From NCBI GenBank assembly GCA_963763775.1, contig CAVXPZ010000001.1, positions 1,184,001 through 1,248,000 of the forward strand: DNA of 64,000 nucleotides. Direction: 5' to 3'. Below are positions 43,761-54,867 of this stretch, one piece after another. The notes under the pieces were generated by a model. That model had not been told where the DNA came from. It saw nothing but the letters and a program-made list of their open reading frames with translations, and ran no database searches. Made by a program: the position numbers and the translations under genes. Every line of letters begins with the position of its first letter. The stretch's first letter is position 1. This stretch comes from an uncultured Chloroflexia bacterium. Its GTDB lineage: Bacteria; Chloroflexota; Limnocylindria; Limnocylindrales; CSP1-4.

Positions 43761-44111
43761 GTGACCACGCCCGTTCGGATCCACGCCGATCGCGAGGCCG
43801 GCACGCTCCAGATCGGCTGGGACGACGGCCACGACACGACGTACACCGCGCTCGCCCTGCGCTGGCTCTGTCCGTGCGCCTACTGCCGGGGCGAGGCGGG
43901 CCTTCCGGGCTGGCTCGACAGCGCCCCCACGCTCACGGCGGACCAGACGCGGATCGTCGACGTGCAGCTCGTCGGCAACTACGCGCTGGCCCCGTCCTGG
44001 GGCGACGGCCACCACACCGGCTATTACACGTTCGACCTGCTGCGCCATCACTGCCCCTGTCCGGACTGCACGGCCTCGCGCATGGCCGACCACCACAAGG
44101 AGTCCGCATGA
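43761..44111 (+). CDS. DUF971 / GBBH-like N-terminal domain protein
   Basis: IGWDDGH, LRWLCPCAYCRG, VGNYALAPSWGDGHHTGYY, second CPCPDC. Confidence 0.85.
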   Translation: MTTPVRIHADREAGTLQIGWDDGHDTTYTALALRWLCPCAYCRGEAGLPGWLDSAPTLTADQTRIVDVQLVGNYALAPSWGDGHHTGYYTFDLLRHHCPCPDCTASRMADHHKESA

Positions 44112-44452
44112 TCGTCGTGACCACGCCCTACCTGTCGGGGCACCGCGTCGTCGAATCGAAGGGGATGGTCTTCGGGCTGGTCGTCCGGAGCCGAGGGCTC
44201 GGCGGCAACCTCATGGCCAGCATCCGCTCCCTCGGCGGCGGGGAGATCCACGAGTACACGAGCCTGCTCGAGGACACCCGACGTCAAGCGCTCGACCGGC
44301 TCGTGCAGAACGCCACGCTGCTCGGCGCCAATGCGGTCCTCTCGATGCGGTTCGACAGCTCGGAACTGTCGGGCACGATGAGCGAGATCGTCGCCTACGG
44401 GTCCGCGGTCGTCGTCGCCGCCGACCCGTCCGCCTCGACCGCGGCGGACTAG
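44108..44452 (+). CDS. YbjQ / UPF0145 family protein
   Basis: MIVVTT, GLVVRSR, GGEI..YT.LL..R..A, LGANAV.SMRFD, AYGSAV. Confidence 0.9.
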   Translation: MIVVTTPYLSGHRVVESKGMVFGLVVRSRGLGGNLMASIRSLGGGEIHEYTSLLEDTRRQALDRLVQNATLLGANAVLSMRFDSSELSGTMSEIVAYGSAVVVAADPSASTAAD

Positions 44453-44455
44453 CCG

Positions 44456-44818
44456 ATGGACCGGCGCCTGGGCGTCACGATCGCCCGAGCCATCGTCGTC
44501 CTCGGCGGGGTCCTCCTCGCGGCGCTCGGGGTCGTGACCCTCGTGATGACGCCGGCCATCTTCACCGGGTTGTTCCTGATCGGGCTCGGCGCGGTGATGA
44601 TCGTGGGCGCCCTCATGGAACGGATGCGCTATCGCTCGGCGACGGCCGAGCTGACCGCGGCGCCGGCCGGTCCGGGTGGCGGCGAGCCGGTCGACCGGGC
44701 CATGGAGTCGCGGTTCCAGCGGACCGACGAGCGGTTCGTCGACCCCACGACCGGGACCCGCATGCGCGTCTGGATCGATCCGGCCAGCGGAGAGCGTCGG
44801 TACCGCGCCGAGGAGTGA
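44456..44818 (+). CDS. Hypothetical two-TM membrane protein
   Basis: Two TMs then ERMRYR...FQRTDERFVDPTTG..MRVWIDP.SGERRY. Confidence 0.7.
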   Translation: MDRRLGVTIARAIVVLGGVLLAALGVVTLVMTPAIFTGLFLIGLGAVMIVGALMERMRYRSATAELTAAPAGPGGGEPVDRAMESRFQRTDERFVDPTTGTRMRVWIDPASGERRYRAEE

Positions 44819-44925
44819 CCGTCGTAGCCCTTTCGGGGAGTCCGGGAGTGTCGTCGGGCCGTGCTATCCTCGCCCGCCGGGCCCGTTCCACCCCGGCTTG
44901 AGCGTCCAGGAGCCCATCACCCGCC

Positions 44926-47103
44926 ATGGCTGCCGTCGAACCAGGTGTATCCGCTCGGACCGCGGCACCGGCACGCCCACGACGGTCGACGAAGCCGAAG
45001 GCGGAGCTCCCCTACCTCAATCGCGAGCTCTCCTGGCTCGAATTCAACGCCCGGGTGCTCCATGAGGCGCGCGACGCGCGCAACCCCCTGCTGGAGCGAG
45101 TCCGCTTCCTGACGATCTTCGCGAGCAACCTCGACGAGTTCTTCCAGGTCCGGATCGCCGGCCTGCGCGAGCAGGTCGAGTCCGGCAGCGTCCACCGCTC
45201 CCGCGACGGCCGGACGGCGGCCGAGCAGCTCGCGGCCGCCCGCGAGCGCGTCCTGGGGCTCGTCGCGGAGCACTCGGCGATCTTCGTCGACGTCCGGCGC
45301 GCCCTGGCGGTCGAAGGGGTCGAGCTGGTCGATTACTCGGCCATCCCCGAGCACCACGAGGCGCTCCGCCAGCGATTCCTCGACGAGATCTTCCCGGTCC
45401 TGACGCCGCTCGCGGTGGACCCGGGGCACCCGTTCCCGTACATCTCGACGCTCAGCCTCTCGATCGCCGTGGGCCTGGTCGACCCGGAGACCGGGGAGCG
45501 CAGCTTCGCCCGCGTGAAGGTCCCGCAGATCCTGCCGCGGCTGCTCGAGGTCGGCCCCGAGCGCTTCGTCCTGATCGACCAGGTCATCGAGGCCAACCTC
45601 GACGAGCTCTTCCTCGGGATGCAGATCGTCGAGCATCACCTGTTCCGGGTCACCCGGAACGCCGACCTCGCGATCGAGGAGGACGAGGCGGACGATCTCC
45701 TCCTCGCGATCGAGGAGGAGCTGCGGCGACGGCGGTTCGGCGAGGCCGTGCGACTCGAGGTCGAGCGCTCGATGCCGGCCAACACGCGCGTGATCCTCCA
45801 GCGAGGCCTCGGTCTGGCGGAAGAGGACTCCTACGAAGTCAGCGGCATGCTCGACATGACCGGGCTCGGCCAGATCGCGGACCTCGCGCGGCCGGACCTC
45901 CAGCGACCGACCTGGACGCCGATCACGCCGACGCGATTGCTGCCGCCCGACGAGGACGTGCCGGCCGACACGTTCGCGGCGATCCGCGCGGGCGACATCC
46001 TCGTCCACCACCCGTACGAGTCGTTCGCCGCCTCCGTCGAGCGGTTCATCACGCAGGCCGCCGACGACCCGGACGTCCTCTCGATCAAGCAGACCCTGTA
46101 CCGCACCTCGGGTGACTCCCCCATCGTCCAGTCGCTCATCCGCGCGGCCGAGCGCGGCAAGCAGGTGGTGGTCCTCGTCGAGATCAAGGCACGGTTCGAC
46201 GAAGAGGCGAACATCGTCTGGGCTCGGAAGCTGGAACGTGCCGGCGCGCACGTCGTGTACGGCCTGGTCGGGCTCAAGACGCACTCGAAGACCGCCCTGG
46301 TGGTCCGGCGCGAGGGGTCCGGGCTCCGGCGCTACGTCCATATCGGGACCGGCAACTACAACCCCAAGACCGCGCGGCTGTACGTGGACCTGGGCCTGCT
46401 CACGGCCCGCCCCGAGATCGGCGCCGACGTCACGGACCTCTTCAACGTGCTGACCGGACTCTCCCGGCAGCGGACGTTCCGGCGACTCCTCGTCGCGCCG
46501 CACAGCCTCCGCTCGCGGTTCCTCCAGCTCGTGGAGCGCGAGATCGGCCACGCGCGCAACGGTCACGACGCCCGGATCATCCTCAAGCTCAACGCCATCG
46601 TCGACGGCCCGAGCATCGACGCGCTCTACGAGGCGTCGCAGGCCGGCGTGCGGATCGAGCTGATCGTGCGGGCCGCGTGCTCGCTGCAGCCGGGCCTCGA
46701 GGGCATCTCGGAGAACATCCACGTCCGCTCGATCATCGGGCAGTTCCTCGAGCACTCGCGGATCTGGTCGTTCGAGAACGCGGGCGATCGCGAGTGGTAC
46801 ATCGGCTCGGCCGATCTGATGGACCGCAACCTCGATCGCCGCGTCGAGGCCATCGTGCCGGTGGAGGACCCGGACGCCCGGGCGCGCCTCGCGACGATCG
46901 TCGACATCATGCTCGCGGACGACCGCCGTTCCTGGCAGCTCCAGTCGGACACGACCTGGGTTCGCACCGAGGTCCTCGACGGCCGGGAAGGGACCGTCGA
47001 CACGTTCGAGACGCTCAAGGAGCTGGCCCTGGCCCAAGGTCACGTCGCCGACATCCCGCGCCGACCCGGGACGGGTGTCGGCTCCCTGGACCCGCGGGCA
47101 TGA
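44926..47103 (+). CDS. ppk1: Polyphosphate kinase 1
   Basis: NRELSWLEFNARV, SNLDEFF, HPFP, HHPYESF, IKQTLYR, ARFDE, KTHSK, HIGTGNYN, LEHSR, SADLMDRNLDRRVE. Confidence 0.97.
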   Translation: MAAVEPGVSARTAAPARPRRSTKPKAELPYLNRELSWLEFNARVLHEARDARNPLLERVRFLTIFASNLDEFFQVRIAGLREQVESGSVHRSRDGRTAAEQLAAARERVLGLVAEHSAIFVDVRRALAVEGVELVDYSAIPEHHEALRQRFLDEIFPVLTPLAVDPGHPFPYISTLSLSIAVGLVDPETGERSFARVKVPQILPRLLEVGPERFVLIDQVIEANLDELFLGMQIVEHHLFRVTRNADLAIEEDEADDLLLAIEEELRRRRFGEAVRLEVERSMPANTRVILQRGLGLAEEDSYEVSGMLDMTGLGQIADLARPDLQRPTWTPITPTRLLPPDEDVPADTFAAIRAGDILVHHPYESFAASVERFITQAADDPDVLSIKQTLYRTSGDSPIVQSLIRAAERGKQVVVLVEIKARFDEEANIVWARKLERAGAHVVYGLVGLKTHSKTALVVRREGSGLRRYVHIGTGNYNPKTARLYVDLGLLTARPEIGADVTDLFNVLTGLSRQRTFRRLLVAPHSLRSRFLQLVEREIGHARNGHDARIILKLNAIVDGPSIDALYEASQAGVRIELIVRAACSLQPGLEGISENIHVRSIIGQFLEHSRIWSFENAGDREWYIGSADLMDRNLDRRVEAIVPVEDPDARARLATIVDIMLADDRRSWQLQSDTTWVRTEVLDGREGTVDTFETLKELALAQGHVADIPRRPGTGVGSLDPRA

Positions 47104-49241
47104 CCGAGACCCTCCGCCCCGTCGAGGTCGAGCTCAAGTACCGCGTGCTCGACATGACCGCCGCCGAGCGGTATCTCGTCGCGCCGAGCATCGGCGCGTT
47201 CGTCGGGGCGTCCCAGGCGCGGTCGACCCAGATGGAGGACCGCTACGTCGACACGGCGGACCGGGCGTTCGAGCGTGCCGGCTTCGCGGTCCGACTCCGC
47301 TCGTCCGGCACCGGCGTCATCGTCTCGATCAAGTCGCTGAGCCGGCGCGAGGGCGCCGGCGGGTCCGTCGGGCGCGAGGAGATCGAGGGTCCGGCGATCC
47401 GCGCGGCGGGGCCGTCGGACTGGCCCGCCTCGGATGCCCGCTCGCTCGTGCTCGAGCTCGCCGGCGATGCGCCACTCGTCGAAGTCGTGACGATCCGGCA
47501 GCTCCGCCGCAAGCGCCAGCTCCGTGACGGGTCCACGCGCGTCGAGTTGAGCCTCGACGAGGTCGACGTCGTGGCGAGCAAGCGAGTGGTGGCGCGCTTC
47601 GTGGAGCTCGAAGCCGAGCTGACGAAGGGCAACGAGGCGCGTCTCAACGGGCTGGCGACCGTCTTCCGCGCCGACCCCGCGCTGAGCCCGGCGATGACGA
47701 GCAAGTTCGAAGCGGCGCTCGCGGCGATGCGGCCGGCGCCGACCAGCAAGTTCGAGGCGGCGCTCGCGGCGCTGGCCGACGTCACCCCGGATGACGACGT
47801 GGCGGTCGAGGCGACCGCGGTCGAGGCGCCGGCCGCGGTCGACACGCCGTCGATGCCCGAGGAGCTCGCCGCCGAGCCGGAGCCCGCCGCCATGGAGACC
47901 ACCGAGGCCATCGAGGCCGCCGAGACCAACGAGCAGCAGGCTCCCGAGGCCGCAGCCGACGAGGCGGTCGCCGTCGCCGAGCCGGTCGCAGAGGCCCCGC
48001 CGATCGACCCGATCGAGGCGATCGCGGCCGCCGAACCGCCGGTCATCGATCTCGACGTCCCGGAGCCCGAGCACGATCCCGAGGCCGCAGCCGACGCTGA
48101 GGCCGACGCGGCGGAACACGAAGCGGATCTCGCGGCGATCGCCGCTGCCCACGCCGCCGCGATCGACGCGGCCGAGCCCGTGGATGCGGTCGTCGACGAG
48201 GATGCCGAGGTCATCGAGGTCCACGCGACCTCCGAGGACGTGCCGACCACGTCGGACGTGGTCAGCGAGGCCGTCGAGGCGGCGGCGGCAGAGAGCGAGC
48301 CGCTCGCCATCAGCAAGACCGCGGGCGTCACCGCGGACGACCACATCGCGGAGGCGGGCCGCAAGGTCATGCGCTTCCACCTCGCGCGGATGCTGGCCCG
48401 CGAAGCCGGCACGCGCCTCGGCAAGGACCCCGAGGAGCTCCACGCGATGCGCGTCGCCACGCGACGGCAGCGCGCCGCCTGGCGGGTGTTCGGCGGGTCG
48501 TTCCGCACCGCGAGGACGAAGAAGTTCCGCAAGGGCCTGCGCGAGACCGCCGCTCGTCTCGGAGCCGTCCGCGACCTGGACGTGCTGCTCGAGGCCGCCG
48601 ACCATTACCGCGCCGACCTCCCGGTCACGGAGCAGCGCGCGCTGGAGCCACTCCTCGCCGACTGGCGCAACCATCGCGAGGGGGCCCGGGTCCTGCTCGC
48701 GCGCGAGCTCGATTCGGAGGGATACCGCCGCTGGGTCGACGACTATCGGGACTTCGTGCGAACCGAGGGCGCCGGCGTCCTGCCGGTGGGTCCGGTCGAA
48801 CCGCATCGGGTCCGCGACACCGCGCCGTCCGCGATCTGGACCGCCTATGAGCAGGTCCGCGGCTACGAGCCCGTCCTCCGCTGGGCCGATGTCGAGACGC
48901 TCCACGACCTGCGGATCGCCGGCAAGTGGCTGCGCTACACGCTCGAATTCGTGAAGGAGGCGCTCGGCCCGGATTCGGCGCCACTCATCGCGCGCGTCAC
49001 CGCGCTCCAGGACCACCTCGGGCTCATGCACGACGCCGACGTGTCGGCGTCGATGGCCAGGGCGTTCCTCGTCGAGCACGCCGGGCAGCTCTCCTCGCTC
49101 GAGAGCGCCGCGATCGGCCGCTACCTGGTCAATCGCGAGCGTGAGGTCGCCCGCCTGCGCCGGACGCTCAACACCACGTGGCGCGGCGTGGACAGCCTGG
49201 CGTTCCGTCGGGCCCTCGGTCGAGTGGTCGCCGGCCTCTAG
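47100..49241 (+). CDS. CYTH domain - long acidic linker - CHAD domain protein
   Basis: EVELKY, DRYVDT, VRLR, ELEAEL, SKF (CYTH); about 180 aa D/E/A/P-rich linker; ELHAMRVATRR, LGAVRDLDV, LHDLRIAGKWLRY, LQDHLG..HD (CHAD); ATGA overlap with ppk1. Confidence 0.9.
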   Translation: MTETLRPVEVELKYRVLDMTAAERYLVAPSIGAFVGASQARSTQMEDRYVDTADRAFERAGFAVRLRSSGTGVIVSIKSLSRREGAGGSVGREEIEGPAIRAAGPSDWPASDARSLVLELAGDAPLVEVVTIRQLRRKRQLRDGSTRVELSLDEVDVVASKRVVARFVELEAELTKGNEARLNGLATVFRADPALSPAMTSKFEAALAAMRPAPTSKFEAALAALADVTPDDDVAVEATAVEAPAAVDTPSMPEELAAEPEPAAMETTEAIEAAETNEQQAPEAAADEAVAVAEPVAEAPPIDPIEAIAAAEPPVIDLDVPEPEHDPEAAADAEADAAEHEADLAAIAAAHAAAIDAAEPVDAVVDEDAEVIEVHATSEDVPTTSDVVSEAVEAAAAESEPLAISKTAGVTADDHIAEAGRKVMRFHLARMLAREAGTRLGKDPEELHAMRVATRRQRAAWRVFGGSFRTARTKKFRKGLRETAARLGAVRDLDVLLEAADHYRADLPVTEQRALEPLLADWRNHREGARVLLARELDSEGYRRWVDDYRDFVRTEGAGVLPVGPVEPHRVRDTAPSAIWTAYEQVRGYEPVLRWADVETLHDLRIAGKWLRYTLEFVKEALGPDSAPLIARVTALQDHLGLMHDADVSASMARAFLVEHAGQLSSLESAAIGRYLVNREREVARLRRTLNTTWRGVDSLAFRRALGRVVAGL
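47697..47774 (+). repeat. In-frame 45-nt tandem duplication (TSKFEAALAAM / TSKFEAALAAL)
   Basis: Copies start at 47697 and 47742 and differ at synonymous sites (ACG/ACC, GAA/GAG). Confidence 0.8.
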
Positions 49242-49279
49242 CCGATCCGGACAGGCTCGGCGTCCCCGCGACCGCGGCC

Positions 49280-49516
49280 CGTTGCCCCACAGACAACGGA
49301 TTCAGGGTCTGGCTCTGGCACGGGGCCCGATCGCGACGCCCCCTCCCCGAAACGTTGCCTGCCAGACGACGGCAGCATGCCCAAGGTCGATCTCCCGCCC
49401 CGTTCGACCCCACTGAGCGCGTCGATGTTGCCCGTCAGGCAACGGTTGGCGCTGGCGAGCCCGGATCGTGGGGCGCGCCCCGGCTTCGGCCTGCGGACGT
49501 TGCTCACCAGGCAACG
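49280..49516. repeat. Array of four 19-bp palindromic repeats (YGTTGCY-NNNCA-GRCRACG) with unique 53-54-bp spacers
   Basis: Repeats at 49280-49298, 49353-49371, 49426-49444, 49498-49516; period 73, 73, 72. Confidence 0.8.
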
Positions 49517-49536
49517 CCGCCCGGGGGCCGCTCGGG

Positions 49537-50478
49537 TCAGGCTCGCCAGCCGTGGGCGAGCTCCGGGAGTCGATCGCGCCAGGCGATCCCGGCGTGGGCC
49601 GTCGCCAGGATGAGGCCCTCGCGGATCCCCGCCTCCGACACGCGAAGGGACTCGGCGCCGTACTGGCGCAGGATCGCATCGACGATGACGGCGCCGGCCG
49701 GCAGGATGCGGGCTCGCGCTTCGCGAAGGCCGTGGCGCTTCGCCGCGAGGTCCGCTGGCTCGGCGGCCAGGAGGGCCATCGCGCGAGCCGTCTTGTCTCG
49801 GGTCAAGGTCCCCTTCGATGCCCCGAAGCGGATCACCTTCAAGAGGTTCGAGACGGTCCCGCCGACCGCGACGATCTCCTGCGGCGAGGCGGGCGGCGCG
49901 GTCGCGACGACCCGTCGGGCATCCTCGAGCATCGCCATGAGTTCTTCGGCGGTGGGCGGGTCGTGCGTGACGTGGCGATCGGTCAGTCGGGCGGCGCCGA
50001 GCCGCAGCCCGGTCGCGCGCGGCGGTGAACCTGGCCCGATGAACGAGAACTCCGAGCTTCCGCCGCCGACGTCGATGATGAGCGTCTCGCGGGCGACCGG
50101 CCGACCGGCCATCACCCCGACCACCGTGAGCAGCGCCTCTTCCTCGTGTGTCAGGACGTGCAAGGCGAGTCCGGCGCGCCGCTCGACATCACGGACGATG
50201 GCGGGGCCGTCGCCCGCTCGGCGGATCGGCTCCGTGCCCGCGACCGTCACGGACGTGGCGCCGAGGCCACGCGCGACCTCCGCGTAGACCGCGAGGGCGT
50301 CGGCCAGGCCGAGGCGAGCCTCCGGACCCAGGAGGCCGTGCTCGGCGACGGCTTTACCGAGCCCGAGGAACACGGACTCGTCCGTGAGCGTGGTCAGCCG
50401 ATGGTTGGTGACCGTCGCGACGAGGAGATGGACCGAGTTCGAGCCGACGTCGATCGACGCACCGACGACGGGCGGCAT
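49537..50478 (-). CDS. ppx: Ppx/GppA family exopolyphosphatase (short form)
   Basis: ASIDVGSNSVHL, TEPIRRA, EEEA, IDVGGGSSE, GGT, GIREG. Confidence 0.88.
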   Translation of the reverse strand: MPPVVGASIDVGSNSVHLLVATVTNHRLTTLTDESVFLGLGKAVAEHGLLGPEARLGLADALAVYAEVARGLGATSVTVAGTEPIRRAGDGPAIVRDVERRAGLALHVLTHEEEALLTVVGVMAGRPVARETLIIDVGGGSSEFSFIGPGSPPRATGLRLGAARLTDRHVTHDPPTAEELMAMLEDARRVVATAPPASPQEIVAVGGTVSNLLKVIRFGASKGTLTRDKTARAMALLAAEPADLAAKRHGLREARARILPAGAVIVDAILRQYGAESLRVSEAGIREGLILATAHAGIAWRDRLPELAHGWRA

Positions 50479-50492
50479 CGAGCGGCGGGCGA

Positions 50493-51461
50493 TCAGGCGC
50501 CGGGCGCGGGCTTGGCCGGCGTCCGCGGCTTCGACGCCGCGGTCGCCGACGGCGTCTTGCGGGTGGCGGCCTTCGTGGCGCTGGCCGGTTTCGCGGCCTT
50601 GGTCGTCGACGTCTTGGTCGCCGCCGGCTTTGCGGTCGACGCCGGTTTCGCGGTCGACGCGTTCGCCGCGGGCGGCTTCTTCGCCGCAGCAGGCTTCTTC
50701 GCGGCCGGCTTCTTCGCGGCCGGGGCCTTGGTCGTGGCCGAGGTCGTCGTCGCGGCCGACGTCTTGGCGGCCGGCTTCTTCGCGGCGGCCGGCTTCTTCG
50801 CGGCGGCTGTCTTCTTTGGCGCACTCGCCTTCGCCCGAGGCTTTGCGATCGGCTCGGCCGCCGGCGCGTCCGCGTCGTCGACCGCGGGTGGGGACGTCTT
50901 GATCGGCGAAACGGCGACGACCGCTTTCGCGGCGGCGGACCCGCCGGCTTTCACGGCGCCGCCCGCGGCGCTCCTGGCCTGGCTGGCCGCGCCCGCCGCC
51001 GCCCCGGCCGCCGCACCGGCGGCATGACCGGCCGCACCGGCTGCGGCTCCAGCGGCATGACCCGCAGCGCCGGCGGCAGCACCAGCGGCACGGCCCGCAG
51101 CGCCCGCCGCGGCACCGGCGGCATGACCGGCGCGCGCGCCCGCCGAACCCGCCGCGCCGCCCACGGCCGACGTCGCGATCGACGCGATCCGCTGCGCGAG
51201 CGCCGCCACCTCGGCGGCGGCTTCACCAGCCTGTCGGCGGCGCTTCTCGACCTGCTTCCCGCCCTTGCCTGCCTGCGCCGCGGCGAGCTGCTTGAGTCGC
51301 TTGGCTTCCTTCTCGGTCGCGGCCATGAGCTGCTGCTCGAGCTTGCGGAGTTCCTTGGCCGCACTCCTGGAGAGCGGCACCACGACGTCGCGTGCGTCGC
51401 CCACGAACCCGGACGCGGCGCCCACCACGCCGTCGGTCGGGACCGCTCGCTTCTTCGCCAT
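50493..51461 (-). CDS. Lys/Ala-rich histone-H1-like protein with N-terminal coiled coil and 11-residue repeats
   Basis: GGAG SD; KELRKLEQQL..KRLKQL coiled coil; (G[H/R]AAGAAAGAA)x4; C-terminal AAKKP/AKPA repeats; stop lies 14 nt before ppx start. Confidence 0.72.
   Translation of the reverse strand: MAKKRAVPTDGVVGAASGFVGDARDVVVPLSRSAAKELRKLEQQLMAATEKEAKRLKQLAAAQAGKGGKQVEKRRRQAGEAAAEVAALAQRIASIATSAVGGAAGSAGARAGHAAGAAAGAAGRAAGAAAGAAGHAAGAAAGAAGHAAGAAAGAAAGAASQARSAAGGAVKAGGSAAAKAVVAVSPIKTSPPAVDDADAPAAEPIAKPRAKASAPKKTAAAKKPAAAKKPAAKTSAATTTSATTKAPAAKKPAAKKPAAAKKPPAANASTAKPASTAKPAATKTSTTKAAKPASATKAATRKTPSATAASKPRTPAKPAPGA
50996..51128 (-). repeat. 33-nt (11-aa) tandem repeat, four copies
   Basis: GCATGACC/GCACGGCC recurs on + strand at 51022, 51055, 51088, 51121. 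Confidence 0.8.
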
Positions 51462-51541
51462 CGGATGGTCACTCCCCTGGTCGGCTCGGTCCGACATCTC
51501 GGCGCACCGTACCATCCCCGTGTGCGATGCGGAGACGATCC

Positions 51542-51913
51542 ATGCCACTGGTCCTGATCGGCCTCGGCGGCTTCGCCGGCGCCATCGCCCGCTACCTCGT
51601 GGACGGCGCCGTCGCCGAGCGGACAGGCGGCGGGTTCCCGTGGGGCACGCTCGTCATCAACGTCAGCGGTTCGTTCCTCCTGGGCCTGCTGTTCGCGCTG
51701 ACCGCCGAGCGAGCGATCCTGCCGGCCGACATCCGCGGCCCGGTGATGATCGGCTTCCTCGGCGCCTACACGACGTTCTCCACGTTCATGCTCGAGTCGT
51801 GGCGACTCGTCGAGACCGGCGCCTGGGCGGCGGCCCTGGCCAACCTCGGCGGATCGATCGTGCTCGGCCTGGTGGCCGTCGTCGCGGGGATGACCCTCGG
51901 GAGGGCGCTGTGA
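51542..51913 (+). CDS. crcB: Fluoride efflux channel Fluc/CrcB
   Basis: GGFAGAIARY, FPWGTLVINVSGSFLLG, GFLGAYTTFSTF. Confidence 0.93.
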   Translation: MPLVLIGLGGFAGAIARYLVDGAVAERTGGGFPWGTLVINVSGSFLLGLLFALTAERAILPADIRGPVMIGFLGAYTTFSTFMLESWRLVETGAWAAALANLGGSIVLGLVAVVAGMTLGRAL

Positions 51914-52773
51914 GACACATCGAGGGACCGGCGCTGCTGGTCCGCGTCTACATCGGCGAGGCTGACCACACCGGCGGCAAGCCCACGTACCAGGCCATCG
52001 TCGAGCTGCTCCGGACGCGCGGCATCGCCGGCGCGACGGTCCTGCGCGGCGTCGAGGGCTTCGGGGCCAACGCCCACCTCCACACGACGCGCCTGCTCCG
52101 ATTGTCGGAGGACCTGCCCATCCTCATCGAGGTGGTCGACGAAGAGGCGCGGCTGCGGGCGGTCCTTCCCGAGATCGACGCCCTCGTCGGCGATGGGCTC
52201 ATCACGCTCGAAAAGGTCGAGGTGCTCGCCTACCGCGGCACTGGCCCGACAGTCGGCGGCCGACTGACCTCCAGCGCCGACGTGGACGACGCCGAGCCCA
52301 CCGCCACCGCGGGCATCCCGACGACTCCGGAGGGCAGCGACGACGCGCTCGGCCCGTGGCATCGCGACGGCTACACGATCTCGACCGACCCTGGCGCGAT
52401 CGACCATGCCGCCGTCCATCGATTCCTCGCCGCGTCCTATTGGGCGGCCGAGCGCCCGACCGAGGTGATCGACCGGTCCCTCGACGGATCGCTGACGTTC
52501 GGCCTGTACCACGACGACCACCAGGTCGGGATGGCGCGGGTCGTCTCCGACTACGCGACGTTCGCCTGGCTGTGCGATGTGTTCATCGAGCCCGAGCATC
52601 GCGGCGCCGGTCGCGGCCAGTGGCTCATCTCGGTCGTGACCGGCCACCCGCGGCTCCAGGGCCTGCGCTGGCTGCTCGGGACGAGCTACTCGCACTCCCT
52701 GTACGCCCGGTTCGGCTTCACCGAGGTCGAGCCGGGCCGCTTCATGATCCGCCGGGACGCGCAGGCTCGCTAA
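51910..52773 (+). CDS. DUF190 (PII-like) protein in frame with a GNAT acetyltransferase (real fusion or indel-joined genes)
   Basis: RVYIGEAD, GIAGATVLRGVEGFG, LSEDLPILIEVVD (DUF190); YTISTD, SYWA, ARVVSDYATFAWLCDVFI..HRGAGRG, LYARFGF (GNAT). Confidence 0.8.
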   Translation: MRHIEGPALLVRVYIGEADHTGGKPTYQAIVELLRTRGIAGATVLRGVEGFGANAHLHTTRLLRLSEDLPILIEVVDEEARLRAVLPEIDALVGDGLITLEKVEVLAYRGTGPTVGGRLTSSADVDDAEPTATAGIPTTPEGSDDALGPWHRDGYTISTDPGAIDHAAVHRFLAASYWAAERPTEVIDRSLDGSLTFGLYHDDHQVGMARVVSDYATFAWLCDVFIEPEHRGAGRGQWLISVVTGHPRLQGLRWLLGTSYSHSLYARFGFTEVEPGRFMIRRDAQAR

Positions 52774-52807
52774 CACGACGTTAACGTCGGCCCAACACCG
52801 AGTTATC
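52770..52807 (+). promoter_or_regulatory. Putative Pho box array (four 11-bp-phased TTAAC-like half-sites)
   Basis: CTAAC 52770, TTAAC 52781, CCAAC 52792, TTATC 52803. Confidence 0.65.
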
Positions 52808-52829
52808 CGCCGACGCGGAGGCTCTGGGC

Positions 52830-53540
52830 ATGACGGACCTCCGGATCCCGCCTCGACCGCCGAAAGGCGACAGCTGGGTCGCCCTCGCGACGGACGGTCC
52901 GATCCTGACCCTCCGAGGCGCGATCCGGACGGTCTCGGATCCCGCGACCTTCCGAGCGCTCATCGACGACGTCCGGCCCAGGATCGTCGTCGTCAGTGAG
53001 CCGCCCGCATCCGCGGGCCTGCTCGACCACCTGACACAGCAGCGACGGCGACGACCGCGCATGCGGATCGTGCACGTCGCGGCCGACGCGAACATCGATG
53101 GTCGGCTGCGGGCGCTTCGGCTGGGGTTCGACGCGTCCCTCCCGAAGAGCATCGACCCGAGCGAATTGCTCGGCAGACTGGAGCTTCTCGATGAGCTTGC
53201 CCACGTCCGCAGCGCGTCGTGCGTCGCCGTCGGCGCGGGGGTGGAACTCGACCTGGTCGCCCACGAACTCCGCCGGGACGGCCAGCCCGTGCACCTCCGA
53301 CCCAAGGAGTTCGACCTCCTGGCCCTCCTCGCGGCGCATCCAGGTCGTGCCTACACCCGACGGCAGCTGCTCGACCGGGTGTGGGGCAACGGCTACCGCG
53401 GGGATCCCCGGACGGTCGACGTCCACGTCCGATGGCTTCGCGCGAAGGTGGAAGCGGATCCGGCGCATCCGGCGCACCTGGTCACGTTGCGATCGATCGG
53501 CTACCGCCTCGATCCGCCCTTCCCGTTAACCGAGCCTTAA
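52830..53540 (+). CDS. OmpR/PhoB-family regulator with degenerate (pseudo-)receiver domain
   Basis: Winged helix LRPKEFDLL..TRRQLLDRVWG..RTVDVHVRWLRAK..GYRL; receiver has PRIVVVSEPP where PDLxxLD is expected. Confidence 0.85.
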   Translation: MTDLRIPPRPPKGDSWVALATDGPILTLRGAIRTVSDPATFRALIDDVRPRIVVVSEPPASAGLLDHLTQQRRRRPRMRIVHVAADANIDGRLRALRLGFDASLPKSIDPSELLGRLELLDELAHVRSASCVAVGAGVELDLVAHELRRDGQPVHLRPKEFDLLALLAAHPGRAYTRRQLLDRVWGNGYRGDPRTVDVHVRWLRAKVEADPAHPAHLVTLRSIGYRLDPPFPLTEP

Positions 53541-53563
53541 CGAAGTGCAAACCACGCGTTGAC
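53526..53563 (+). promoter_or_regulatory. Putative Pho box array upstream of pstS
   Basis: TTAAC 53526, TTAAC 53537, CAAAC 53548, TTGAC 53559: exact 11-bp phasing. Confidence 0.75.
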
Positions 53564-53672
53564 CACGCCGCTCGACCGTGAGAGCGCTCAGACAGGGATG
53601 TAGAGACCAAGGCTGCCCCGAAAGCCAGCGACCGCCCGCGTAGCCGTGTGGCGACCAGGAGGAAACAGATCC

Positions 53673-54867
53673 GTGATCACCCCCACCTCGAAGCGCCTCG
53701 GCGCGCTCGCCTTCGCGGCGATGTTCGCGATCGGCGCGTGCTCCAGTTCCGGATCGTCGGCCGCACCGTCGACCGCCGCGTCCGCCGCAGCGCCGTCTGC
53801 CGCGGCCCCGTCAGCTGCAACCCCGTCGGAAGCGGCCCCATCCGCGTCCGCCGCGGCGATGACCCCGCCGGCCCCCGCCGCCGGCAGCGTCACGCTCCAG
53901 GGCGCCGGCGCCACCTTCCCGGCCCCGCTGTATGACAGCTGGTTCCAGACGTATACCGGAGCCAACCCGCAGGTCCAGTTCGACTACCAGGCCATCGGAT
54001 CCGGTGGCGGCATCAAGGCCATCACGGACGGTACCGTCGACTTCGGCGCCTCGGACGCTCCGATGAAGGACGAGGAGATCGCCGCCCTGCCGGCCGACTG
54101 CAAGGTCCTGCACGTCCCGACCGCCCTCGGCGCGGTCGTCGTGATCTACAACCTGCCCGGGCGTCACGGCGCTCAACCTCGACGCCGACAACGTCGCTGG
54201 GATCTATCTCGGCACGATCAAGAAGTGGAACGATCCCGCGATCGCCGCGAACAACGCGGGCGTGACGCTCCCCGACACCGACATCCTGGTCGCCCATCGC
54301 TCGGACGGCTCCGGGACCACCAACGCGTTCACCACCTACCTCGACACGGTCTCGCCCGACTGGCACACGAAGGTCGGCAAGGGCAAGGAAGTCAACTGGC
54401 CGGTCGGCGTCGGCGGCCAGGGCAATGACGGCGTCGCGACCGCGGTCAAGCAGACGCCCGGCACGGTCGGCTACGTCGAGCTCAACTACGCGACCACGAC
54501 GGGGCTCACCTCGGCGAACCTCAAGAACGCCGACGGCCAGTTCGTGCCCGGCTCGACGGACGGCGTGACCGCCGCCGCCGAGACCGCCGCCGCCAGCTTC
54601 CCGGCCGACTTCCGCCAGGCGCCGATCATCAACGGCGCCGGTCCGACGACCTATCCCATCGCCTCGTACACCTACCTCCTGGTCTGCACGGACCAGAAGG
54701 ACGCCACGAAGGGCCAGGACCTCGTGGCCTTCATGTACTGGGCCCTGACCGACGGTCAGGCCACGGAGAACACCCTCGGCTACGCCCCGCTGCCGGCCCC
54801 GGTCGCGCAGAAGGCGATCGAGGAACTCCACCAGATCACCACCGGCGGTGCGCCGATCTGGCCGTAA
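53673..54867 (+). CDS. pstS: Phosphate ABC transporter substrate-binding lipoprotein (frameshift near 54160)
   Basis: AGGAGG SD, lipobox IGAC, GAGATFPAPLY, GSGGG, DFGASD, HRSDGSGTT, YPIASYTY. Confidence 0.93.

Follow-up and report, generated by a model that had tools for sequence, protein, structure and literature searches.

What does a strongly basic protein of no named family contribute when its gene stands directly in front of that of an exopolyphosphatase, facing a gene for polyphosphate kinase? The question is raised by a 64,000-nucleotide stretch of DNA (the window) from an uncultured Chloroflexia bacterium assigned to CSP1-4 in the Limnocylindrales (GenBank assembly GCA_963763775.1, contig CAVXPZ010000001.1, positions 1,184,001 to 1,248,000). 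Between positions 44926 and 51461 the window contains ppk1, a gene for a CYTH-CHAD protein, a short ppx and a gene for a 322-aa basic protein, here named PUP, for 'Ppx-upstream protein'. The locus is best read as a polyphosphate (polyP) metabolism module. The role preferred here for PUP, tentatively and with as much reserve as conviction, is that of a lineage-specific polyP accessory factor, co-expressed with Ppx, which may coat, tether or gate polyP.

The window has a G+C content of about 72%; each open reading frame (ORF) call was tested and none was assumed. All four genes were confirmed where a preliminary description of this DNA had placed them:

44926-47103, plus strand: ppk1, polyphosphate kinase 1, 725 aa (four PPK1 Pfam domains; TIGR03705)
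47100-49241, plus strand: CYTH-CHAD gene, 713 aa (Pfam CYTH and CHAD; start ATG at 47100)
49537-50478, minus strand: ppx, short Ppx/GppA-family phosphatase, 313 aa (PF02541)
51461-50493, minus strand: PUP, 322-aa basic protein (G+C at third codon positions, head conservation, ribosome-binding site)

The ATG of the CYTH-CHAD gene overlaps the TGA stop of ppk1 as ATGA, and on the opposite strand the PUP stop lies 14 nt before the start of ppx. The plus-strand pair and the PUP-ppx unit converge across a gap of 295 bp. The coupling of ppk1 to the CYTH-CHAD gene and their convergence on a two-gene unit, both put forward in the preliminary description, are borne out by this arrangement.

The strongest evidence for a role of PUP in polyP metabolism is the company that its gene keeps. 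Linkage of the basic protein to ppk/ppx in other genomes had been set beforehand as a test, and the gene order held throughout: in each of the 17 genomes of the genus that match PUP, ppx lies 3' of it on the same strand, and PUP is followed by ppx in 31/31 public loci with enough flanking sequence (34 loci in all). The converging CYTH-CHAD gene is seen in 29 of those 31, the contigs of the remaining two ending inside ppx, and 25 extend as far as ppk1. In a sample of the class, ppx adjoins the PUP match in 23/28 loci; of the five that deviate, one is a clear paralogue and four are the weakest matches (E 2e-4 to 1e-3), and all but one of the matches with E <=1e-5 adjoin ppx. Wherever the contig permits the check, PUP is thus the immediate 5' neighbour of ppx, a position it holds in about 14 genera, and ppx converges on ppk1/CYTH-CHAD in most loci of the family. 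Across the family the two genes are 1 to 101 nt apart, close enough to suggest co-transcription. Sequencing runs looked up for the PUP-ppx unit (49537-51461) included none of RNA; just six runs, of DNA or of unknown type, shared about 5-6% of its sequence words. The Ppx proteins of these loci are 49-82% identical to the window Ppx, and the upstream flank of PUP varies: a crcB-DUF190 pair is adjacent, lies 3-4 kb off or is not found, and pstS or other genes occur there in other genera. Because the pair persists while Ppx falls to about 50% identity and the flank changes, PUP and ppx appear to be functionally linked. This persistence is the main argument for such a link.

Long spurious ORFs are common at 72% G+C and several overlap PUP; the tail of the protein is repetitive, and fused or frameshifted PUP calls occur in some assemblies. 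These features could point to a non-functional or fast-decaying frame in GC-rich low-complexity DNA, an explanation that is largely refuted and keeps only a very slight probability. The in-frame G+C content at third codon positions (GC3) is 0.89 in the head and 0.91 in the tail of PUP, the head is 32-71% identical to those of relatives and retains invariant residues over 16 species, and a GGAG-type ribosome-binding site, read by eye, precedes a conserved MAK start in 28/28 relatives (in the window, GGGAG stands 10 nt 5' of the ATG). Moreover, there are 93 representative homologues, and the hairpin of the head is predicted with pLDDT (predicted local distance difference test) values above 90. 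Given its GC3, the conservation of its head and its MAK start with a Shine-Dalgarno sequence, PUP is a real gene and no GC-rich artefact.

The protein, with an isoelectric point of 11.2, can be divided into the following parts, all encoded on the minus strand:

51141-51461, minus strand: N-terminal region (head), residues 1-107, with MAK start, short helix and basic helical hairpin (AlphaFold2, alignment A1)
50946-51140, minus strand: Gly/Ala repeat, residues 108-172, 11-residue unit AGHAAGAAAGA in about 4.5 copies (33-bp tandem repeat; A1 columns 125-200)
50898-50915, minus strand: AVSP(I/V)K motif closing the head region, AVSPIK at residues 183-188 in the window (A1)
50496-50897, minus strand: basic disordered tail, residues 189-322, 134 aa (composition)

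Alignment A1 comprises PUP heads from 16 species. From it, AlphaFold2 predicts helices at residues 10-25, 32-64 and 68-107, the last two forming a hairpin with pLDDT 91-95 across residues 31-90 and then 87. The hairpin (residues 31-107) has a net charge of +8 and holds an ExKRxxQL core; L45, E52, R55, A62, R74, Q77 and A82 are invariant in the A1 heads. Between the hairpin and the AVSPIK motif sits the Gly/Ala/His repeat, which is predicted to be helical (pLDDT about 70); Gly/Ala/Ser/Lys expansions like it are found only in the closest relatives (loci L002 and L012). The tail contains K25, R3, D3, E1, A48, P21 and T19 (19% K, 36% A, 16% P), for a net charge of +24, and combines five KKP and five AKP motifs with Thr-rich stretches. 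Its DNA is periodic at 18 and 33 bp. Across relatives the tail evolves fast, and the hairpin is the conserved part.

No known family accounts for this architecture. Window PUP has no match in Pfam or NCBIfam, and the only phasin-family match among the 16 heads searched against Pfam (PF09361, 1/16, E 0.08) is noise. Against PDB sequences the best E value for PUP is 0.62, the ESM Atlas returned nothing usable, and Foldseek against the PDB gave no match at E <=0.001, its top rows being generic helical bundles. Similarly, Pfam yields no match in PUP to the winged-helix globular domain of linker histone H1 or to Hc1, and the resemblance to H1/Hc1 is one of tail composition only. The preliminary description had called the product an H1-like basic protein. 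The helical head and the Lys/Ala/Pro tail are indeed present in the window, and the label does not carry over to the orthologues, the tails of which are mostly rich in Arg, Thr, Pro and Ala.

Searches with the single protein found PUP in 17/24 genomes of the same genus and in 0/16 genomes of a sister family. The A1 head profile matches 15/15 sampled genomes of the genus and 10/76 genomes from the other genera of the family. In the other families of the class it gave 0/12, 0/92, 0/2 and 2 marginal matches in 103, that is, 2/209 overall; 377 genomes from elsewhere in the phylum yielded no match. When 1.84 billion representative proteins were scanned, the PUP head had 93 matches, 28 of which were inspected; all were family-like but one large repeat protein (P0066). 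A separate protein search with A1 returned 13 clusters, none with a Pfam domain and with 'hypothetical protein' as the sole name. The related loci come from metagenome-assembled genomes of soil, groundwater and similar origin. On the evidence of these searches, PUP is a lineage-specific family without a name, belonging to one family of Limnocylindria-like Chloroflexota. The PUP hairpin also occurs in another setting: contig C6 of genome G098 encodes a paralogue (locus L157, 5829-6512; profile E 1e-10), unlinked to ppx, in which a zinc-ribbon-like C-terminus containing CPNCG (CxxC) takes the place of the disordered tail. Since this paralogue pairs the hairpin with a different end, the hairpin is a reusable module.

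The partner enzyme is short. The ppx product has the Ppx-GppA domain only (PF02541, E 2e-38, 133 bits versus a cut-off of 27) and scores 198.6 bits on TIGR03706, the profile of exopolyphosphatases sensu stricto, the cut-off of which is 307. Because it falls under this cut-off, its substrate, polyP or guanosine pentaphosphate (pppGpp), is inferred from context. It is encoded by the sole Ppx-GppA gene detected in the 87%-complete genome, that at 49537-50478. Long Ppx proteins such as that of Escherichia coli carry C-terminal domains. PUP might make up for their absence as a dedicated Ppx partner, be it an adaptor, a processivity factor or an inhibitor: its hairpin would dock onto the short, two-domain Ppx, and its variable tail, in place of such domains, would give or block polyP binding in trans. 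Several features suit a partner of this kind, namely that the hairpin and not the tail is the conserved part of PUP, that PUP always directly precedes ppx in the same orientation, that the 313-aa Ppx has the Ppx-GppA domain only and scores under the TIGR03706 cut-off, and that a tail which flips its charge (see below) is easier to reconcile with a regulator than with a scaffold.

The distribution of ppx speaks against such a partnership. A ppx-anchored set of 38 loci was drawn from many genera of the family, and the head profile was iterated on the ORFs upstream of ppx. In 15 of these loci a PUP head immediately precedes ppx; three more have a diverged helix-plus-tail ORF at the PUP position (by eye), and in the others that place is taken by a divergent pstS or a different gene. 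The 23/38 loci with ppx and no detectable PUP count against a dedicated partner; since many genomes of the family are of this kind, Ppx evidently works without PUP in close relatives. A control-free complex prediction for Ppx (alignment A2) with PUP residues 1-115 scored 0.00/0.00, gave no verdict and argues neither for nor against binding. A role as adaptor or regulator is the strongest rival to the accessory factor proposed here and suits the charge flips better; on balance it is nevertheless doubtful.

On the facing strand, the assignment of ppk1 is firm. Its product satisfies the four-domain definition of PPK1, with PF13089, PF02503, PF17941 and PF13090 (N, middle, C1 and C2 domains) far over cut-off (E 1e-36 to 1e-74) and 824 bits on NCBIfam TIGR03705 against a cut-off of 466. 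The protein coupled to it consists of two enzymatic or binding domains held apart by a long acidic linker:

47100-47669, plus strand: CYTH (triphosphate tunnel) domain, residues 10-180 (PF01928, E 2e-15)
47670-48371, plus strand: acidic linker rich in Ala, Glu, Pro and Asp, 234 aa, residues 191-424 (composition)
48372-49241, plus strand: CHAD polyphosphate-binding domain, residues 425-654, and stop codon (PF05235, E 8e-51)

The CYTH domain scores 57 bits on PF01928 (cut-off 23) and is introduced by EVELK at residues 9-13, an instance of ExExK, the defining mark of the CYTH or triphosphate tunnel metalloenzyme family. Tri- or short polyphosphates are the probable substrates of cleavage by this tunnel domain. 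The CHAD match spans positions 3-227 of the 228 in the profile, and CHAD domains are polyP-binding modules, as described in the relevant part of PMC6537752. Elsewhere in the 87%-complete genome there are one further CHAD gene and two PPK2 genes. The linker contains 57 D/E and 6 K/R residues, for a net charge of -51. The contrast between an acidic linker in one product and a basic tail in the other, pointed out in the preliminary description, is therefore real in the window (-51 and +24). Linker length varies between 45 and 244 aa among relatives, and net charge between +5 and -35.

As a polyP accessory factor, PUP would take its place in the following scheme. PPK1 would synthesise polyP, and the CYTH-CHAD protein, co-translated with PPK1, would bind it via CHAD. 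The converging operon would yield PUP and then the only Ppx detected in the genome. The conserved basic hairpin would be the anchor of PUP, either associating with itself or docking onto Ppx or polyP, and the polycationic Lys/Ala/Pro tail of window PUP would bind polyP by charge and possibly nucleic acid too. PUP could in this way coat or tether polyP, or gate polyP for Ppx, in the manner of AlgP or PhaF of Pseudomonas. The tail is a plausible polyP binder because there are precedents in the tail of AlgP and in E. coli YihI and RNase R, the Lys-rich disordered parts of which bind polyP in vitro according to the passages on them in PMC12345225.

How well this scheme applies beyond the window depends on the charge of the tail. 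In the genus-like loci the tail is basic in all 27 cases measured (+7 to +56), mostly Arg/Thr/Pro/Ala-rich, of the KPATTRKP type, rather than Lys-rich or H1-like. Among other genera, 13/15 tails carry +1 to +20. A test for mutual compensation of tail and linker charge gave a Spearman rho of -0.46 over 30 pairs (p 0.01, a value uncorrected for relatedness), -0.47 in the 18 genus-like loci and +0.10 in the 12 loci of other genera, and supports no claim of compensation.

A number of observations weigh against the accessory role. The Lys-rich AAKKP tail is found in few species only, and two of the 15 tails from other genera are strongly acidic, at -39 in L119 (G214) and -18 in L155 (G691); both ORFs are profile-confirmed PUP orthologues with Glu/Pro/Ala/Asp-rich tails. 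The diverged ORFs upstream of ppx in L103 and L089/L092 likewise have acidic, Pro/Glu-rich tails (by eye). Because the charge of the PUP tail is not conserved, binding of polyP by a polycation cannot be the common function of the family. In addition, basic disordered regions bind any polyanion, including RNA and DNA. The charge of the CYTH-CHAD linker varies from +5 to -51, the window being the extreme. The paralogue of the head in G098 lacks the link to ppx, and all of the linkage is synteny within one family of related genomes, the loci of which are not independent. The notion of oppositely charged scaffolds, advanced in the preliminary description, consequently stands for this genome and its nearest relatives and fails for the family as a whole, with its acidic tails and its linkers of +5 to -51.

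Some of the same observations would fit a protein with no particular tie to polyP. PUP may be a basic protein that associates with the nucleoid or with RNA in general, comparable to H1-like proteins or to the tails of HU-type proteins, its place beside ppx being inherited gene order of no functional import. Disordered regions that bind DNA or RNA look like the K/A/P and R/T/P tails, both AlgP and PhaF are DNA-binding (PMC9239181, in the passages on these proteins), PhaF is also reported to bind RNA (PMC12818456, likewise in part), and in loci that all belong to one family shared ancestry alone could preserve the gene order. However, the pair outlasts a changing upstream flank and the divergence of Ppx to about 50% identity, the gaps of 1-101 nt suggest a single transcript, and orthologues with acidic tails could not bind nucleic acids. 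A general nucleoid protein is thus an improbable explanation; were it correct, the finding would shrink to an ordinary conserved ppk1/CYTH-CHAD/ppx cluster.

The proposal that PUP is a polyP accessory factor can be extended to cover the acidic tails. PUP would then be a new family never found but as the partner encoded 5' of ppx, with a hairpin that docks onto Ppx or onto the polyP surface and a tail (+56 to -39) that tunes the formation and position of condensates and the access of the hydrolase. This extension is unlikely as it stands. If true, it would describe the first granule organiser to share an operon with the degrading enzyme, opposite the genes for the synthase and a CHAD protein. 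The known organisers of polyP granules are few, comprising CHAD phosins and AlgP, and none is tied genetically to the degrading enzyme in the literature searched. The PUP family also offers a natural comparative series, from basic to acidic tails, for relating charged disordered tails to polyP condensates and to access by Ppx, and it adds polyP biology for the soil Limnocylindria, which are uncultured and little studied.

The gap between the converging genes of the window contains a repeated element:

49278-49516, no strand: array of a 19-bp palindrome (consensus CGTTGCCTGCCAGGCAACG; four copies) at spacings of 73, 73 and 72 bp (pattern count)

The window has 4 matches to the palindrome CGTTGCCTGCCAGGCAACG against 0.67 expected, and none of 100 shuffles reaches 4. 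Similar arrays of 3-4 copies with 72-73 bp spacing occur elsewhere in this genome (G000), on contig C3 at ~262884-263120 (L117), and on contig C4 at ~83716-83980 (L118); the palindrome is conserved between arrays and the spacers are not. As the orthologous gap in relatives measures only ~10-60 bp, the array is taken to be an insertion. It is probably REP/BIME-like (repetitive extragenic palindromic sequence/bacterial interspersed mosaic element) and no part of the polyP module; alternatively, it may consist of phased protein-binding sites. The 295-nt intergenic region folds no better than shuffled sequence (z -0.65), and an Rfam search of positions 44000-54000 at E <=1 gave two sub-threshold chance matches and no RNA family in the array.

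On the other side of the module, crcB, for a fluoride channel (~51524-52773 region), is divergent from PUP, the two starts (51461 and ~51524) being ~62 bp apart; no fluoride riboswitch precedes it (Rfam, E <=1). An ORF joining DUF190 and GNAT acetyltransferase domains lies 3' of crcB. A GATGGTACGGT-like element at ~51500-51515, ~40-55 nt before the PUP start, is shared with L021, L024, L038, L044 and L052. Its sequence could be that of an extended -10 promoter (TGnTACGGT). It was undetected by a consensus sigma-70 scan, and the consensus promoter and terminator scans found none. Further along, a winged-helix regulator of the OmpR/PhoB type (52830-53540) is encoded directly upstream of pstS. 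Its DNA-binding domain is clear (Trans_reg_C, E 3e-27) and its receiver domain is below cut-off (Response_reg, E 0.0076), which makes it a candidate atypical Pho regulator by domain content. The pstS gene (53646-54867) is split over two frames, with ORFs at 53646-54428 and 54262-54867, and its similarity to the PstS of relatives changes frame near 54154-54170; the split reflects a genuine frameshift or else an error in the assembly.

Several parts of the locus have counterparts in known systems. The regulator and pstS, 2 kb from the polyP module, recall Streptomyces, in most species of which a ppk-pptA(CHAD)-nudix operon stands beside pstSCAB under PhoP control, the CHAD gene overlapping ppk and being co-transcribed with it (PMC8003754, in the sections on this operon). 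The window resembles that operon, as described there, in the overlap of ppk1 with the gene for a CHAD protein and in the nearness of pstS, and differs from it in the N-terminal CYTH domain, the 234-aa acidic linker, the lack of a nudix gene and the converging PUP-ppx unit. The CYTH-CHAD protein itself shares its two-domain architecture and its ExExK motif with the YgiF type of E. coli. It is set apart by the long hyper-acidic interdomain linker, which is extreme here and variable in relatives; YgiF is not known to have such a linker.

For PUP, no counterpart beside ppx has come to light. The preliminary description was aware of no H1-like scaffold operonic with ppx, and in open-access papers and bioRxiv no description was found of a gene upstream of ppx whose product is H1-like or basic and disordered, nor any paper that names 'Limnocylindria' together with 'polyphosphate'. 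Nearest in build is AlgP (AlgR3) of Pseudomonas aeruginosa, with a 124-aa helical head and a disordered KPAA tail that is required for the spacing of polyP granules, according to the passages on it in PMC9239181. By the same passages the two proteins are alike in length (352 versus 322 aa) and in joining a helical N-terminal domain of ~110-125 aa to a disordered Lys/Ala/Pro tail; AlgP has at least 25 KPAA repeats, whereas PUP has AAKKP/AKP motifs and Thr-rich stretches. The association of AlgP with polyP granules emerged from a granule proteomics screen, and these passages of PMC9239181 mention no linkage to ppx, whereas PUP is fixed upstream of it. No relationship in sequence can be detected between the two (neither Pfam nor NCBIfam has a family that PUP matches), and PUP orthologues, unlike AlgP, may have Arg-rich or even acidic tails. 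The Pseudomonas phasin PhaF is encoded beside the enzymes of its polymer. It follows the same two-part logic as PUP, with a helical granule-binding head and a basic AAKP tail that tethers the granule to the nucleoid (PMC9239181, in part). The polymer of PhaF is polyhydroxyalkanoate, and the phasin profile, as noted, finds only a chance match among the PUP heads. The architecture of PUP, as predicted, is thus AlgP/PhaF-like, a helical head with a long disordered basic tail, without detectable homology. Already known are the pairing of ppk with CHAD, CHAD as a polyP binder and the occurrence of H1-like tails at storage granules; new are a family absent from Pfam and NCBIfam, its position essentially only 5' of ppx, its AlgP-like architecture and the variable charge of its tail.

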